Source: Candidatus Poribacteria bacterium
GTDB lineage: Bacteria > Poribacteria > WGA-4E > PCPOR2b
Assembly: GCA_965208325.1 (NCBI GenBank)
Contig: OZ242326.1
Span: forward strand, 416,001-480,000
Direction of reading: 5' to 3'
DNA: 64,000 bases
The position numbers were made by a program. Position 1 is the stretch's first letter; every line of letters begins with the position of its first letter. Of the stretch, positions 21,001 to 27,000 are shown piece after piece.

Positions 21001-24000
21001 AAATTAGTTGGTTGCGGGGGATGCCGGGAAGAAACGGACACTTACAAGGAAGTTGTTCGTCGTCAATGTGAATCCCTGCAACGCCCGCATCCTCAAAATC
21101 TCGAATTGAATCCATGACACTTATGGCGTTACCGTATCCTTCCTCCATGTCAGCTATCACCGGAACATCTACTGCTTTAACAACATTGCGTACGAGTAGA
21201 AGGCGCTCGGTTTTGGACATGAGCGCCAAATCCGGTTTGCCCAAGAATGAGGCTTCAGTGGAATAGCTGCCAACATACACAGCGTCAAAACCTGCCCGCT
21301 GAACTAACAATCCAGACAGGGCGTCTTGGGCGCCGACGCCAACAACCGTCTTGCCCTCGTTAATCATTTTGCGCAGTTTTGCAGTTTTTTTCATAATAAC
21401 CTCAACGCGGATTAATGTACGAAAATCGAGTATTGCCTGATTCGCAAAACGCGAAATTTACCATTCATATTATCGCTGAGGTTCATTATATCATAGACAC
21501 CAATTTTGTCAATTTTTTCTCCAGTAACGATTCTTTATCCAAAAGAGGACGTTGTTAGATGGAGAGGTTAGTTATCGAAAATGACGGGCAGCAACTGATT
21601 GGTTAATATTCCCATTTTTATTTAAATAGGACTTACGCCGCAAGTTCAAGAATCCACCTGATAAGGGATCCAAGCGAACGAATAGTGAGGCATCAACCGA
21701 CCGAATAGGGAGGGCGATACTCTATAATCTTAGGGAGGGTCGCCCCCTTTTTGATCGGATTAATATGTGTAATTTTTAGCTACAGCGATTATAGCAGTTC
21801 TCTTTGAATTCGTGGATTATTCCAGCCATGCAATTTTTTCTCAGGTTCAAAGTCATATTGACATTATTCTCAATTCAAGTGTATACTAAACAACAATCAA
21901 TTAGGGCGTGTTGACATTTATGTAAAGCTGCCTGTAATCGTAGGGGCGAGGTCACCTCGCCCATTGACCAACGCGGTCAGGGAACTCCCAACCATACAGG
22001 TTGAGTGAATTGTACGTCAAGAATCATATCATGACAAAATAACAGGCGTGTTGCACCATAGTCTTGGCACAATTAAGCCGGCATTATGTACTATATTCTA
22101 GAGTATTGTTGATTTTGGCCAATCAACCTACAGGAGTCCGAAATCGTGTCTGATTGTAAACAAAGGGTTGGGTGACCCAACCCCTACGAAACGTCATGTA
22201 TCAGTGCACCGATCTTGATTGTCCGGTTGCGATGAAATGTCAACAGAACCTAGGGTGTGCGAGTCATTAACTATGGTTTGCCGATATTGTCTCGGAAATT
22301 CTAATTGCACAGATCTAATCTAAAACTGATAGGACTTACACAGTTGGGCAGACACAAGGGTTGAGCCTTGCTACGCCTAATCCTAAAAGTCCGCGATTCA
22401 GACAAAAAATCCAAAATATGTGATATTTTGTGAGGTTTTGTGATTTCCGTTGAAGATCCATCAAAATTCAAAACCCTTTAAACCCGCATGATAAGCGGAC
22501 TTCAGCCGATTTCACAAGTACCGTTTCGCACATCACAAATACCTCACAAAATGTGATATATTGTGACATATAACTGTGAATGTGGTGTATTCAAAATTCC
22601 TTTGAATCCGCATGACAAGCCGATTTACACAGGGTTCATAGCCAAGAGTTAAAATGTCACAAGTTGCCTCACAAAATGTGACATGGTGTGATATTTTGTG
22701 AGGTTTTTTTTGTGTTAAACATAGAATCCGGCAGATTTCTACCAAATCAAACTATAGCCATTGCCACTAAAAATTATACATTTACTCATTGGTCTGTGGG
22801 AGAGGCTTCCTAGCCTCGATTATCAATCAGCTTTCGTAGGTTGGGTTACGCTCCATCCATCAAATCCCGATCGTGGTTAACCTGCCGATCGATTCGTAAT
22901 AATGAACATCATTCGTGTAATCCGCTTAACCCAACCTACAAAAGCTATTGGAAAGTCCTCCCCCTGGCTAAGCTTACTATTACCCACAAGTCTTCGGAGG
23001 TAGTGGTTTTCTATGTTAGTGCTAAGAACTATCGTTCAATTCGACACTGTGAAAAAGGCGAAAGGTGTCAGAAATATCTCTTAACCGCTGCCACCCTCGC
23101 CAGATAACAGTCACCCCAGGCTCACCGTCGGACCTGCGCGCTAAAAAACCACCGAGCTTGGCAATCCAAATCACTACCTCAGAAACGGTAGGAACTTGCT
23201 TGGGCAAAGTGCTACGCCGATGAGACACACAATAGAGCGCTTTCCACTCATCAGATGTTAGCACACACCTACAATCCGCAGTCGGGGCATGGCGGTTCAT
23301 CATCGTCAGCCAGTACAACCGCCACGCAATCACACTGGTTAGCGCAAAGTATCGTAAAAGCCGACTTTTAGTTTGCAGACGGCACGATTCGATTTTGGTG
23401 CCGGATTTGAGGACCTTGAAATAGACTTCAATTTGCCATCTTAAACTGTACCAACGTATTCGTTCCAGAGCGTCCGAAAAATTGGCCACTTCTACATTCG
23501 TGATTAACAGCCATTCAATCGGGGTTGCCCTCGCGGGTGGATTCACCTCTGCTACCCAGATGACATTCACCTCAATTGCAGGTAGATTTGGCGATTGTGA
23601 CGCCTGCGAACGATAGGGAGGAACCAGCGTCGTTGCCGTAAAATGAACACTGACCGTAGCCTCACGAGATGCTTGGTTCCCACGAGCGGGTACCTTAACA
23701 ACTAGCATACCGGAAGCAGGTTGACTTTTGACCAAGGGATTGAGTTTACCCAGCTCATCATCAACAATTCGATTCTGAACCGCTCGAATCACGAAGGGTG
23801 TGTCTTGTGATTCAACAAAAAATTCATAAATATCGGCTTCACGGTCACAGATGGAAATTACCTCAACCCCTGCTGGAGTTTGCGCTTTGATTTCATTTAA
23901 CGCTTCAATCCATTTGTAACTCTCTTTTTCAGTCAGTGGCGGATTGGTTTTGCGAACGGTTTGCTCGGAATCTTCCCGGACCCAAACTTTATCCGTGAGT

Positions 24001-27000
24001 CACCCCAATGGCAATCCCGACTCAGTGAGCACTAGCGTCGTGTGTTTGACAAACCCGTAGATTTGCTGCGACTTTGTCCCAATTGGACCTAAGCCCTCGG
24101 TCAACGGGTGATGCGTGTAATTCAGATAGGTCGTATCCTGTACTGCAAAAACACGTTGATGTTCACTCATTCGTTCAACAGTACGTTGAAAGTGAGGCAC
24201 TAGAATTTTTTCTGCTGTGACCTTCTGGTTATCAAATAAACGATAAGCTGCTTTTGTGGCTGCCCAATCACCACAGGCAGCGTTGATGGAGGATTGCGGA
24301 TAGCCTGATAATTCTTCGGCGACATCAATCAGTCGCTCAGTGAGACGTTTATCTCCCAAATGAATCGTCCCAAATTCTTGGCGACTCCAAGGGAGCTTGA
24401 ACTCATCATGGTTTGAAGGCATAGTTGACTCCAATTTCGTAGTGAGGTCGTTATGATTTTCGGTAACCTAGCCCCTCGAATTTATCACATTTGCTTTCGC
24501 CAAGCAAATACTGATTCTCGATTCCGAAATGTTACCCGCCTAACTTGCAGGCAATCATGTTAGTCAAATAAGAGACGCAAAAAAACCATCACCTTCCAGA
24601 TTACCTGACTTGTGGGTAATAGTAAGCCTGGCTAAGGGGGAGCTAGAGGGGGTCAGGAACTTTTCACCTCGCAGAAGATAAAGATGAACCCATCCAAAGA
24701 CAAAATCAAGACTGCCCTACAACGCTTCACCGATGGACACCTCACCGAAAACGCCCGCCATCTTCTCAACACCCTCGGCTACCGCAGCCAAAGGACGCTA
24801 TCCCTCGAACCGAACACCGCCGACGGATTTATTGAGCACTTCGACACGCATAATACTATGAACCGCGAGCGGGGGCAGTTGAATGATTGGGAGTCCATCG
24901 ACTTCCTGTTTCAACTGACAGACGACGAAATCAATCAGAGCGCTCAGACTACCTTTGGCGTTGAAGGGACCGGAATAGACAAAAGCGTTTATGAATCCTA
25001 TCTCTTCTTCGCCCTAAAACTTCAGAATCGCGGCTACACCCGCACCCAACTGTCGGACATCGCCCGCGAAATCAACAAACTGCTCATGATACCCGCCATG
25101 GTCTTGTTCCAGCACGGGGATGCCCTCACCTTCGCCGTAATCGACCGCCGGCTGCACAAGCGCTACGAATCCAAAGATGTCCTTGAAAAGGTGGCGCTCA
25201 TTAAAGACATTGATTTCGCTAACCCCCACCGCGCCCACATCGACATCTTGTTCGACTTGTCGCTTAGTGAGCTACACCACCAGCATCGTTTCACCGATTT
25301 CCCGGGGCTTCATGAAGCTTGGAAATATACGCTCGACACCGAACTGCTCAACAAGCAGTTTTACAAAAAGTTGTTCAACTGGTTTGTATGGGCGGTCGAA
25401 GAGTCAAAATTTCCCGATAAAGAGAACAGAATACTGAAACCCGAACAGCATGTCATCCGCTTAATCACGCGCTTGCTTTTCGTATGGTTTATTAAAGAAA
25501 AGAGACTGGTTGCCGACGAAATATTCGACGAAAAGCAAGTTGCCCCCTTGCTGAAGGACTACAGCCGTAACACCGGCGATTCCTACTACCGTGCGGTGTT
25601 ACAAAACCTGTTTTTCGCCACGCTAAACACCGAGATTGAGAAGCGTAAGTTTAGCACAGAGAAAAACGCTACACACCGTAATTTTTCACGGTATCGTTAC
25701 AATAGCCAAATCAGTCATCCGAATAAACTTCTAGGACTATTCGCCCAAACGCCGTTCATAAACGGCGGGTTGTTCGACTGTTTGGATAGCGAGGAGGCGA
25801 CAGAGGGCGGCGGCTACCGCATTGACTGTTTTTCGGATAGACATTACAAGCGGTTGAGTATTCCCAACCGTCTCTTTTTCGACGGGGACGACGGTCTGTT
25901 CCCCCTACTGAAACACTACAAGTTCACCGTTGAGGAAAACACGCCGATTGAGCAGGAGGTCGCCCTGGATCCCGAACTCCTCGGCAAGGTGTTTGAGAAC
26001 CTGTTGGCAGCATACAACCCGGAAACTGGCGAGTCTGCCCGCAAACAGACCGGCTCATACTACACCCCGCGTCCCATAGTGGACTATATGGTAGAAGAGG
26101 CGTTGGTAGCAACGCTGGCGCAACAGGTAAACCCATCGGACGGAGATGTGAGTTTTTGGGAAGAGCGCTTGCACTATCTGCTAGACTATGCGAAGGCATT
26201 CGACGACGCGAGCGAATGGTTTGATGACGATGAGAAAGACGGACTTGTACAGGCAATTTCGGAGCTCAAGATACTAGATCCCGCGGTCGGTTCTGGCGCG
26301 TTTCCGATGGGTGTGCTGCACAAACTGACCCTCGCGCTGCGGCGGCTTGACCCGGATAACAAGCGCTGGGAACAGTTACAGCGGGAACGGGCAATACAGC
26401 GAGCGGAAGTCGCATTCGATACGAAAGATGACAGGACACGGCGCGAGGAACTCGTCGAGATTGACGAAACTTTTAAGCGGTATCGGGATTCGGATTTCGG
26501 ACGGAAATTATACCTGATTCAGAACAGTATCTTCGGCGTGGATATTCAATCCATTGCTTGCCAAATCGCCAAACTCCGCTTCTTCATCTCCCTTGCGATT
26601 GAGCAGATGCCGGATAAAGACGCGGAGAACTTCGGTATCAAGCCGTTGCCGAATCTGGAGACGCGCTTTGTTGCAGCGAATACGCTAATCGGTCTTGAAG
26701 GCGAACAAACCCTGATCAGTCCCAATGCGATAGCTTTAGAGCAAGCATTGGCTGACAACCGCGAGCGGCATTTCCATGCAACGACGCGTCCGCAAAAACT
26801 GGCGTGTAAGCGAGAGGACATAAAGTTGCGGCGGGAATTAGCAGCAGAATTAAGGCATATCGGCATGCCTGACGATGATGCCGAAAGAATTGTCCATTGG
26901 GATCCCTACGACCAGAGTGAAAGCGCGGAATGGTTTGATTCAGAATGGATGTTCGGAGTCACGGACGGGTTTGATGTGGTGATTGGGAATCCGCCGTATG

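Follow-up and report, generated by a model that had tools for sequence, protein, structure and literature searches.

A Tn5-like insertion sequence of Candidatus Poribacteria with a persistent in-frame UGA in its transposase gene: a possible case of selenocysteine decoding

Introduction

Transposase synthesis is throttled by frameshifting in known insertion sequences (IS). In IS1 and IS3 elements, programmed −1 frameshifting yields an abundant N-terminal DNA-binding product and rare full-length transposase, resulting in low transposition. Some other elements, such as IS1397, ISKpn1 and similar REP-targeting insertion sequences, belong to IS families distinct from the one described here. In known selenoproteins, selenocysteine (Sec) lies, to our knowledge, nearly always at a redox site. 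Transposase genes with an in-frame stop have been described in Methanosarcina, where, according to three reports (PMC1976440, PMC1242214, PMC1914089), the codon is UAG and the hosts own pyrrolysine (Pyl) machinery; readthrough is covered in a review (PMC5009743). Our literature search retrieved neither a UGA or Sec counterpart of the Pyl transposases nor an active bacterial IS lineage reliant on the decoding of an in-frame UGA.

Here we analyze an IS of Candidatus Poribacteria bacterium, a sponge symbiont, whose transposase frame contains a TGA. The window studied is a stretch of 64,000 nt, and all coordinates refer to it unless the contig is named; its position 1 is position 416,001 of contig OZ242326.1 (GCA_965208325.1).

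Results

The element, its copies and its target sites

Measured from inverted repeat to inverted repeat, the element spans 22973-24626; the limits of 22952-24653 given in the genome-wide survey's note had wrongly taken in the halves of the target repeat. The outer features are the following.

22973-24626, minus strand: insertion sequence proper, IS4 family, Tn5/IS50-like, 1654 bp, limited by 20-bp perfect inverted repeats, with five genomic copies
24607-24626, minus strand: terminal inverted repeat on the 5' side of the transposase gene, CTTACTATTACCCACAAGTC when read in gene sense
22973-22992, plus strand: terminal inverted repeat on the 3' side of the transposase gene
22963-22972, unstranded: left target-site duplication, 10 bp in the window copy, from sequence comparison of copy flanks
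24627-24636, unstranded: right target-site duplication, from the same comparison
22958-22972, unstranded: left half of the split palindromic target repeat CTCCCCC-N7-GGGGGAG
24627-24642, unstranded: right half of the same repeat

Blastn recovered all five full-length copies at the contig positions reported by the survey (438952-440653, 2464641-2466341, 2517759-2519459, 2737689-2739379 and 3029593-3031293, with the survey's limits). The 41 variable columns counted there are mostly flank, and 7 lie inside the 1654 bp. Copies 2-5 are identical over their full length and all 7 columns distinguish the window copy from those four; six of the differences fall within 78 bp, all inside the initial 100 bp of the untranslated 5' end, and the seventh changes Val410 to Ile. 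When the read-through protein was used in tblastn against the genome, it matched just the five copies, the only other hits being seven chance matches (all E >= 0.32). The genome therefore holds no sixth or intact copy, as had been claimed, and the same search revealed no other related transposase that might act as a helper.

It also held true that every copy has its own target duplication, the five copies being inserted into five different copies of the palindromic repeat. This palindrome is present in 28 intact genomic copies, compared with 0 in shuffled sequence (1 Mb), and insertion is restricted to the apex of this one repeat family in 5/5 copies. Three copies have a 9-bp duplication (CTTNNNAAG type) and the window copy one of 10 bp; in the fourth copy an ambiguous boundary allows 9 or 10 bp.

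A single interruption in the transposase frame, between D96 and D193

The coding features, all on the minus strand, are as follows.

24429-24432: Shine-Dalgarno GGAG, 6 nt upstream of the ATG, read off the sequence
24003-24422: codons 1-140, with the Tn5-type DNA-binding domain (residues 12-68) and the first catalytic Asp, D96
24000-24002: in-frame TGA, codon 141, next base C; TGT (Cys) in relatives, Leu in Tn5
23025-23999: codons 142-466 in the same frame, with D193, E332, the Y-R-E-K motif and the Tn5 dimerisation domain
23844-23846: second catalytic Asp, D193
23427-23429: catalytic Glu, E332
23022-23024: transposase stop TAG

The full frame comprises 466 residues and contains three Pfam domains, namely PF14706 Tnp_DNA_bind (E 1.5e-22), PF01609 DDE_Tnp_1 (E 2.4e-5) and PF02281 Dimer_Tnp_Tn5 (E 1e-17). 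Phmmer aligned residues 11-454 with Tn5 transposase structure chains (E 3e-47), with D96, D193 and E332, together with Y325, R328, E332 and K339, matching the Tn5 motifs DTT, CDREAD and RWRIE. As in the IS50/Tn5 group, both the Y-(2)-R-(3)-E-(6)-K signature and the catalytic D, D, E are present; the element also has the domains, short inverted repeats and 9-bp duplication of the group, but lacks its uninterrupted frame. D96 precedes the TGA, and D193 and E332 follow it.

We confirmed the TGA at codon 141 (..ESGLPLG-TGA-LTDKVW..) as the sole in-frame interruption in 5/5 copies. The frame is identical upstream and downstream, and the slippery-heptamer, two-frame arrangement of IS1/IS3 is thus absent. 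In relatives the context is conserved on both sides (PLG-C-LTD.VW), and the Cys reported at this codon proved to be TGT in 18/18 distinct PLGCLTD sequences, all of them from other genomes of the Poribacteria. The "1 TGA" counted in relatives from the genomes labeled G044, G048 and G053 is their ordinary stop codon.

Spread of the stop-bearing lineage and selection downstream of the TGA

In public protein collections the lineage occurs solely in its stop-bearing form, and it is present in 20 of the 24 runs listed, from 14 studies. Its N-terminal piece is represented by 29 variants (25 + 4), the 16 inspected being without exception 140 aa long and ending in ..PLG, as would the product of translation that ends at the TGA, and its C-terminal piece by 28; most variants are known as proteins alone, and what the 16 N-pieces show is a stop at codon 141, of whichever codon. 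Among 5.8 billion protein clusters the best uninterrupted relative has 77% identity, and none above this value exists in public data. At the DNA level, the TGA is retained in two sublineages of the host genome and in ~1% diverged copies from two independent sponge metagenomes (X5 and X11). Over a 1616-nt contig of X5 and a 1203-nt contig of X11, all 15 and all 10 differences, respectively, lie outside 24000-24002, and no indel was found in the coding frame in the 4 metagenome runs compared.

The part 3' of the TGA is under purifying selection. Columns with conservation >= 0.9 in the family make up 46% of the C-piece and contain 6 of its 30 substituted sites, an avoidance of conserved columns (permutation P=0.0014) also seen in the N-piece (P=0.0018), and dN/dS downstream of the TGA is 0.35-0.43 (P about 0.04).

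The survey had proposed that the element transposed after gaining the TGA and that its full-length transposase is made across the stop. The individual target duplications, the lack of a helper, the lineage-wide stop, the ~1% diverged copies that keep the TGA and the purifying selection support and extend this proposal. The TGA would have to be translated, because D193 and E332 lie downstream of it and the genome encodes no helper transposase.

Sec machinery of the host and a SECIS-like hairpin

The host genome carries selA, selB, selC and selD, with selA, selB and tRNA-Sec in one cluster and selD itself a U-containing gene product, as well as at least seven selenoprotein genes. Downstream of the TGA we located a candidate element for Sec insertion.

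23963-23987, minus strand: SECIS-like hairpin covering +15 to +39 (counted from the T of TGA); CGGGAA forms the loop at +24 to +29, and a U bulges out near +33

This hairpin, with three G-U pairs, has a weak fold of −6.2 kcal/mol, which counts against Sec and had led the survey's note to conclude that no convincing SECIS follows the TGA. That judgment was too pessimistic, as the genome's authentic SECIS range from −5.1 to −10.5 kcal/mol in the identical model (−10.5, −10.4, −9.8, −6.7, −5.4 and −5.1, with one at −0.1), and −6.2 or better is reached by 4.8% of 600 random TGAs. Moreover, the hairpin that can form here agrees with a bona fide SECIS known from this phylum, that of the Sec-peroxiredoxin gene, in its spacing and closing pairs as well as in its apical loop and bulged U. 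The peroxiredoxin gene occurs in 154/176 genomes, and 27 distinct hairpin sequences taken from 30 loci show that its SECIS is conserved at synonymous positions. We threaded the peroxiredoxin SECIS structure at fixed offset onto all 166,994 genomic TGA triplets; 8/8 pairs, at least 5/6 loop letters and the bulged U came together at no TGA other than those of the peroxiredoxin gene and of the IS copies, a result that is post hoc, the template having been picked after the resemblance was noticed, and to which a correction for seven templates applies. None of the 18 Cys relatives reached 8/8 pairs.

Other observations count against Sec. The 81 nt 3' of the TGA have no more stable a fold than their shuffled versions (z = +0.96), and the region is hairpin-prone regardless of the codon, −6.2 kcal/mol being reached in the generic model by 5/18 Cys relatives and by 12.6% of 1000 synonymous shuffles. 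The letters CGGGA of the loop, which encode Arg-Asp/Glu, are ancestral. A covariance model built on the peroxiredoxin SECIS did not match the IS in full; the match was limited to 10 nt at the apex (7.3 bits). Position 141 is, moreover, neither a redox nor a catalytic site: Tn5 has Leu there and 8/71 family members have V, L, S or I. Weighing the full host machinery, the UGA in place of a clade-conserved Cys and the SECIS-like features of the hairpin, we favor Sec insertion at codon 141, to which we assign a probability of roughly 0.45.

Other explanations of the in-frame TGA

Leaky near-cognate readthrough, in which RF2 would act weakly at UGA-C and tRNA-Trp (or tRNA-Cys, tRNA-Arg) would occasionally read UGA with no part for SelB, yielding a little full-length transposase with an ordinary residue at position 141, is in our estimate unlikely, although the evidence for a translated stop fits it equally well. 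Low-level UGA readthrough via tRNA-Trp is general in bacteria and is exploited by phage Q-beta, which speaks for it, as does the finding that UGA-C is the rarest TGA context in long ORFs of this genome (109/657, versus 190/775 for TAA-C), a rarity consistent with a leaky signal being avoided. The column of codon 141 tolerates several residues: it reads C 63, V 4, L 2, S 1 and I 1 among 71 family members, while Tn5 has Leu and distant relatives have R and N; and the IS hairpin need not be a SECIS, because generic hairpins are common at the same place in the family. However, Trp is absent from column 141 in the 71 relatives, and the genome has no suppressor tRNA besides tRNA-Sec. Near-cognate reading also leaves unexplained why, out of the 43 codons of the gene that a single substitution would turn into TGA, the one affected is the only one that combines a Cys position with a model hairpin downstream, and why that hairpin fits the peroxiredoxin-SECIS fold, as no other genomic TGA and no Cys relative does.

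Recoding would be unnecessary if the TGA copies were non-autonomous and had been moved by an intact helper since lost, or if the TGA had spread by gene conversion among copies already in place. The mosaic window copy, with its clustered differences, indicates that copies recombine and that at least one further variant once existed; conversion tracts would be undetectable among four identical copies, and 222-bp MITEs with the same ends as the element show that the family can be moved in trans. We nevertheless regard this explanation as improbable, in that Tn5-type transposases prefer to act in cis, no helper is found in the genome and no uninterrupted relative above 77% in public assemblies, despite the 29 and 28 split variants. 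Purifying selection is unexpected in a region that is never translated, and diverged variants from independent samples retain the stop.

Still further from our expectation is a two-piece enzyme, in which the 140-aa N-piece and a separately initiated C-piece would assemble into an active transposase. Both pieces are called as genes in many assemblies, and Tn5 does make a second protein via an internal start. Yet the sequence from codon 142 to D193 contains no in-frame ATG, GTG or TTG, and the 15 C-pieces listed start at codon 211 (4), 230 (3) or 239 (8), so the called C-pieces lack D193 and share no conserved start; the break would, in addition, fall inside the RNase-H-like core and part its first catalytic Asp from its second.

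An assembly or base-calling artefact, or a code with TGA as a sense codon everywhere, is hardly worth entertaining, for even though polishing can homogenise identical repeat copies, the TGA recurs in two diverged sublineages of the genome and in independent assemblies from other studies, TGA terminates 657/1916 long ORFs, and tRNA-Sec is the sole tRNA with anticodon UCA.

Discussion

We propose that this IS is an autonomous, currently active Tn5-like element whose transposase would be made only when a ribosome decodes the UGA at codon 141. The majority of ribosomes would halt there and release a 140-residue protein with the end-binding domain, presumably an inhibitor acting at the element's ends; a minority would continue to the 466-residue enzyme, which alone unites D96, D193 and E332. 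In the Sec reading that we favor, SelB would bind the hairpin 15-39 nt downstream and deliver Sec-tRNA to the UGA. The element may then be the first Sec-decoded transposase, encoded by a selfish Tn5-like element in which a Cys codon became UGA ahead of a hairpin that SelB accepts, a claim that we advance tentatively and hold at somewhat short of even odds.

If Sec is inserted, the transposition rate would be governed by Sec-decoding efficiency and selenium supply, with the end-binding inhibitor as default product, and this would be a rare non-redox Sec, fixed for expression control rather than chemistry. The selenoproteome would extend past redox enzymes, a fortuitous near-SECIS could bring a new gene under the Sec pathway, and genome plasticity of sponge symbionts would be tied to selenium. 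If near-cognate tRNAs read the UGA instead, the element would be a natural case of functional stop-codon readthrough in bacteria that takes the place of frameshifting. Such elements are wrongly scored as dead, because gene callers split the gene in every public assembly.

Compared with IS50/Tn5, the element shares the three Pfam domains, D-D-E, Y-R-E-K and 9-bp duplications, and it has 20-bp inverted repeats. It differs in the conserved UGA that separates the first catalytic Asp from the second, in inserting only at the palindrome apex and in that no separate Inh-type start is evident. With the frameshift elements IS1/IS3 it would have in common one mRNA that yields a short DNA-binding product and a full-length transposase, but the switch is a same-frame stop, with neither frame change nor slippery heptamer. 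Like the REP-targeting insertion sequences, it enters the loop of a dispersed palindromic repeat; unlike them it belongs to the Tn5-like elements, and the 9 bp that it duplicates are the central CTTNNNAAG of the palindrome.

The Methanosarcina Pyl transposases, as the reports present them, likewise combine an in-frame stop with host machinery for the 21st/22nd amino acid; there, UAG is read as Pyl with no strict local signal, whereas here the codon is UGA and Sec needs a nearby SECIS. Finally, bacterial selenoprotein genes such as the host Sec-peroxiredoxin resemble the IS in the UGA opposite Cys, the flanking conservation, the Sec machinery and the G-rich loop at +24, while the IS position is non-redox and substitution-tolerant, the gene is selfish, the hairpin is weaker and the UGA is confined to one lineage.

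Anatomy, copies and target sites of the element

The window copy is a 1654-bp insertion sequence (IS) on the minus strand, with these features.

Features of the window copy (window coordinates)
22973–24626, minus strand: insertion sequence, 1654 bp, perfect 20-bp inverted repeats at both ends
24420–24422, minus strand: ATG start of the transposase frame, with GGAG ahead of it
24000–24002, minus strand: in-frame TGA at codon 141, the sole interruption of the frame
23022–23024, minus strand: TAG stop, end of the single long frame
22958–22972 and 24627–24642: halves of the split target palindrome

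Read through, the frame encodes 466 residues carrying all three Pfam domains of Tn5 transposase; solved Tn5 structures align with residues 11–454 (E 3e-47), and the motifs DTT, CDREAD and RWxIE are in place. The catalytic residue D96 lies upstream of the TGA, and D193 and E332 lie downstream. Gene callers begin the downstream ORF only at codon 211, so that it lacks D193.

A blastn search across the 4.71-Mb genome recovered five full-length copies, the same count as in the genome-wide survey's note, and tblastn revealed no further related transposase. Copies 2–5 are identical end to end and the window copy differs from them at seven positions; the 41 variable columns that the note had counted among the copies turned out to derive from the flanks. 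Six of the seven differences fall within 78 bp (window 24528–24605) at the 5′ untranslated end, beside the inverted repeat. Metagenome variants share some states in this stretch with the window copy and some with the other four, so the copies are mosaics and IS variants recombine. One variant, from the public sequencing run X20 (2.8% diverged), carries in the 5′ untranslated region a 9-nt insertion, TTAGTCAAA, at window 24559, apparently a small tandem duplication. The IS has as its immediate neighbour a long ORF of at least 982 aa (window 24684–27632, plus strand), which contains an N6-adenine methyltransferase motif (..VVIGNPPYV..) and resembles a fused type IIG/IIL restriction-modification enzyme.

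The five copies occupy the apices of five different copies of one palindromic repeat, CTCCCCC-N7-GGGGGAG. Each has its own target duplication, of 10 bp in the window copy, 9 bp in three others and either 9 or 10 bp in the fourth copy, which bears out the earlier claim of separate flanks and duplications. Unoccupied copies of the palindrome number 28 in the genome versus none in 1 Mb of shuffled sequence. Only the apex is used, in five of five cases, and repeat targeting this strict is unusual for a Tn5-like element. The palindrome measures 21 bp, its loops are mostly TTNNNAA, and it is nested in a larger REP-like palindromic unit of ~43 bp.

The same type of palindrome, with 9-bp duplications, is occupied by a family of non-coding elements of 221–223 bp (one of 292 bp) that bear the IS terminal repeats with 0–4 mismatches. 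These ~222-bp elements are MITEs, and they must have been mobilized by this transposase or by its ancestors. IS ends also occur as solo or degenerate copies, ~20 in the genome.

MITE-like elements (contig coordinates, all outside the window)
361007–361228
883251–883542
1864242–1864463
2023340–2023560
2601614–2601835
2904785–2905007
3816951–3817172

Most relatives carry cysteine at codon 141

Among 176 Poribacteria genomes, 33 (counting G000) have a match to the transposase, the closest being 77% identical. Within the genus, the three other genomes hold no match or only a 45-residue remnant. The note's observation of Cys opposite the TGA extends to 18 of 18 distinct relative sequences, all with TGT at that codon. 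Among 71 full-length database relatives, column 141 holds C in 63, V in four, L in two, and S and I in one each; Tn5 has Leu there, and L, V, I, R or N occur in relatives further removed. This composition indicates that Cys is clade-conserved but not essential. Protein-guided scans returned distant relatives only, at up to 52% identity in JGI metagenomes and up to 38% in viral contigs. Short N-terminal fragments from other lineages (139–149 aa) were rejected as ordinary truncations, ending at a different codon.

The stop-bearing form in public data

Of the 24 public runs listed, 20 (14 studies, mostly sponge metagenomes) contain half or more of the words sampled from the stretch, and no RNA run with it was among those listed. 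Four runs from four studies (X5, X11, X18 and X20) were compared with the window copy. The contigs of X5 (1616 nt) and X11 (1203 nt) show 15 and 10 differences, respectively, all of them listed and none at 24000–24002; the TGA is thus kept in both. Codon 141 was read in DNA from these two runs, the difference lists of X18 and X20 being partial (7 of 17 and 21 of 46 missing). None of the four runs shows an indel in the coding frame. P0132, a 256-aa C-piece (the part called downstream of the TGA), comes from a 1667-nt Logan contig equal in length to X20's contig, and this match suggests that the X20 copy is split too. Many contigs continue past both ends of the element into sequences that differ from one another, a sign of many insertion sites.

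In a collection of 5.8 billion protein clusters, uninterrupted relatives reach 77% identity at best, and the only closer match is a 256-aa C-terminal piece. Exact look-up returned 28 distinct C-pieces and 25 distinct N-pieces (the product ahead of the TGA), to which a second N-piece cluster (94% identity) adds four; among the N-pieces listed, 16 of 16 are exactly 140 aa long and end in ..PLG. These variants diverge from the window copy at no more than 9 residues in 140 and 19 in 237. The form with the stop is thus still a living lineage. Exact-pattern scans for its DNA, in which the third base of each codon was left as N, gave no matches in genome contigs or in metagenome contigs; the metagenome pattern crosses a site variable in X11 and X18, and could therefore miss those variants.

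Constraint downstream of the TGA

Substituted sites in the C-piece have a mean conservation of 0.623 versus 0.756 for the region, and six of 30 lie at columns with conservation of at least 0.9 versus 46% of the region (permutation P = 0.0014). Substitutions in the surely translated N-piece likewise fall at family-variable columns (P = 0.0018). Downstream changes in X5 and X11 comprise seven synonymous and eight non-synonymous (dN/dS ~0.35, P = 0.043), and all those listed 10 and 14 (dN/dS 0.43, P = 0.039), ratios that rest on small numbers and, for X18 and X20, on partial lists; the upstream part shows five synonymous and one non-synonymous. The conservation and dN/dS tests agree and point to a downstream part that is probably under constraint. 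No start codon lies between the TGA and D193, which discards reinitiation and, with no helper in the genome, leaves as the plain reading that ribosomes pass the TGA.

Selenocysteine decoding in the host

TGA ends 657 of the 1916 long ORFs of the genome and is therefore an ordinary stop here, TGA-C being its rarest context (109 of 657). ARAGORN predicted 50 tRNA and tmRNA genes. A suppressor tRNA was rejected because the only tRNA with anticodon UCA is that for selenocysteine (Sec), tRNA-Sec; its gene is adjoined by selB and selA, and selD has an in-frame TGA of its own. Self-comparison reduced 10,694 TGA-spanning candidate frames to 747 aligned across the TGA and to 93 with Cys opposite in every match, from which six selenoprotein genes were chosen by redox motif; the remaining 87 appear for the most part to be off-frame matches within paralogous families. 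In the paralogues with which the 747 frames align, the residues opposite the TGA (R 156, C 147, S 81, W 58, G 55, L 52) are mainly one-step neighbours of that codon; many of these frames are off-frame matches of repeated gene families, and some may be TGA pseudogenes or further recoded genes.

TGA-split selenoprotein genes: the six chosen and SelD (contig coordinates)
2569247, minus strand: rhodanese (CYU-QGGYRS)
1693126, minus strand: MoeB/ThiF-like E1 enzyme with rhodanese domain (PSU-SEAG)
4184540, plus strand: thioredoxin-like protein (UxxC)
3927406, plus strand: thioredoxin-like protein (UxxC)
1378479, minus strand: peroxiredoxin
4409564, plus strand: exported AhpC-like protein
4481278–4482201, minus strand: SelD

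The Sec-peroxiredoxin gene occurs with its TGA in 154 of 176 Poribacteria genomes. Most genomes of the order have two paralogues side by side, ~450 bp apart (loci L130–L155 in other Poribacteria genomes), each with its own TGA and a nearly identical Sec-directing hairpin (SECIS; GCTCGCTCCGGGATGAGTYGAGC).

A SECIS-like hairpin follows the TGA

Our simple SECIS model allowed one hairpin, beginning anywhere from +10 to +26, whose loop begins between +18 and +27 and includes GG or GU. Seven authentic sites scored −10.5, −10.4, −9.8, −6.7, −5.4, −5.1 and −0.1 kcal/mol, and no hairpin fitting the model was found in the rhodanese gene. The IS hairpin scored −6.2 kcal/mol. Of 600 random TGAs, 4.8% reach this value, but so do five of the 18 Cys relatives and, among 1000 synonymous shuffles, 12.6%; with z = +0.96 for the 81 nt after the TGA, stability alone says little.

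It is the form of the hairpin that stands out. The peroxiredoxin SECIS hardly varies at synonymous sites across 27 distinct sequences. It combines a lower stem and a bulged U at +33 with three apical pairs and the loop CGGGAU (+24 to +29). In the IS hairpin the loop, again at +24 to +29, reads CGGGAA and is closed by U-A and C-G pairs; a bulged U is present, and eight of eight positions are paired. Using a template picked after this likeness was seen, we threaded the peroxiredoxin structure at fixed offset on all 166,994 TGA triplets of the genome: 91 had all eight pairs, eight sites (four distinct sequences) also had at least five of six loop letters, and the further demand for a bulged U reduced these to the peroxiredoxin gene and the five IS copies alone. 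The 18 Cys relatives all fell short of eight pairs (at best seven, in three sequences). The loop letters of the IS hairpin are ancestral and encode Arg-Asp/Glu. A single step separates 43 IS codons from TGA; the model hairpin follows two of them, of which codon 141 alone is a Cys position as well. A covariance model of the peroxiredoxin SECIS gave no full match in the IS or 20 loci of relatives, covering only the 10-nt apex of the IS hairpin (7.3 bits), and a search of the element against Rfam, with E values up to 10 admitted, returned four chance matches and no SECIS family. Other candidates were rejected: the best covariance-model match in the window (46437–46472) has no TGA ahead of it, and two TGAs ahead of a perfect hairpin (contig 2764113 and 2770024) lie outside any ORF.

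How UGA-141 is passed

Recoding of UGA-141, by Sec insertion or near-cognate leak taken together, is well supported, with a probability of roughly 0.7. Sec insertion is the favoured, if tentative, choice: the codon is one for Cys in relatives, the hairpin has a fitting form and spacing, and replacing Cys by Sec would be a conservative change at a column where Trp never occurs. The lack of Trp at column 141 among relatives speaks against a near-cognate leak, which we regard as rather unlikely. Spread through a helper since lost, or gene conversion, is less probable still, as tblastn exposed no related transposase beyond the five copies. A two-piece enzyme made of the N-piece and the C-piece is very improbable. 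An artefact or an altered code is hardly credible, genetic codes 4 and 25 being refuted by the ordinary stop function of TGA. A-to-I editing of the UGA was discarded since the TadA-type context is absent.

IS1, IS3 and truncations of Tn5 transposase are the model for an inhibitory role of a short product, and by analogy the 140-aa protein might be an end-binding inhibitor. Among the titles and abstracts listed on transposase Sec decoding or stop readthrough (subscription journals lay outside this scope), none named a UGA- or Sec-dependent transposase, and the passages on readthrough in PMC5009743 do not mention IS elements. Passages of PMC1976440, PMC1242214 and PMC1914089 mention UAG-containing transposases in Methanosarcina, where the codon stands for pyrrolysine.
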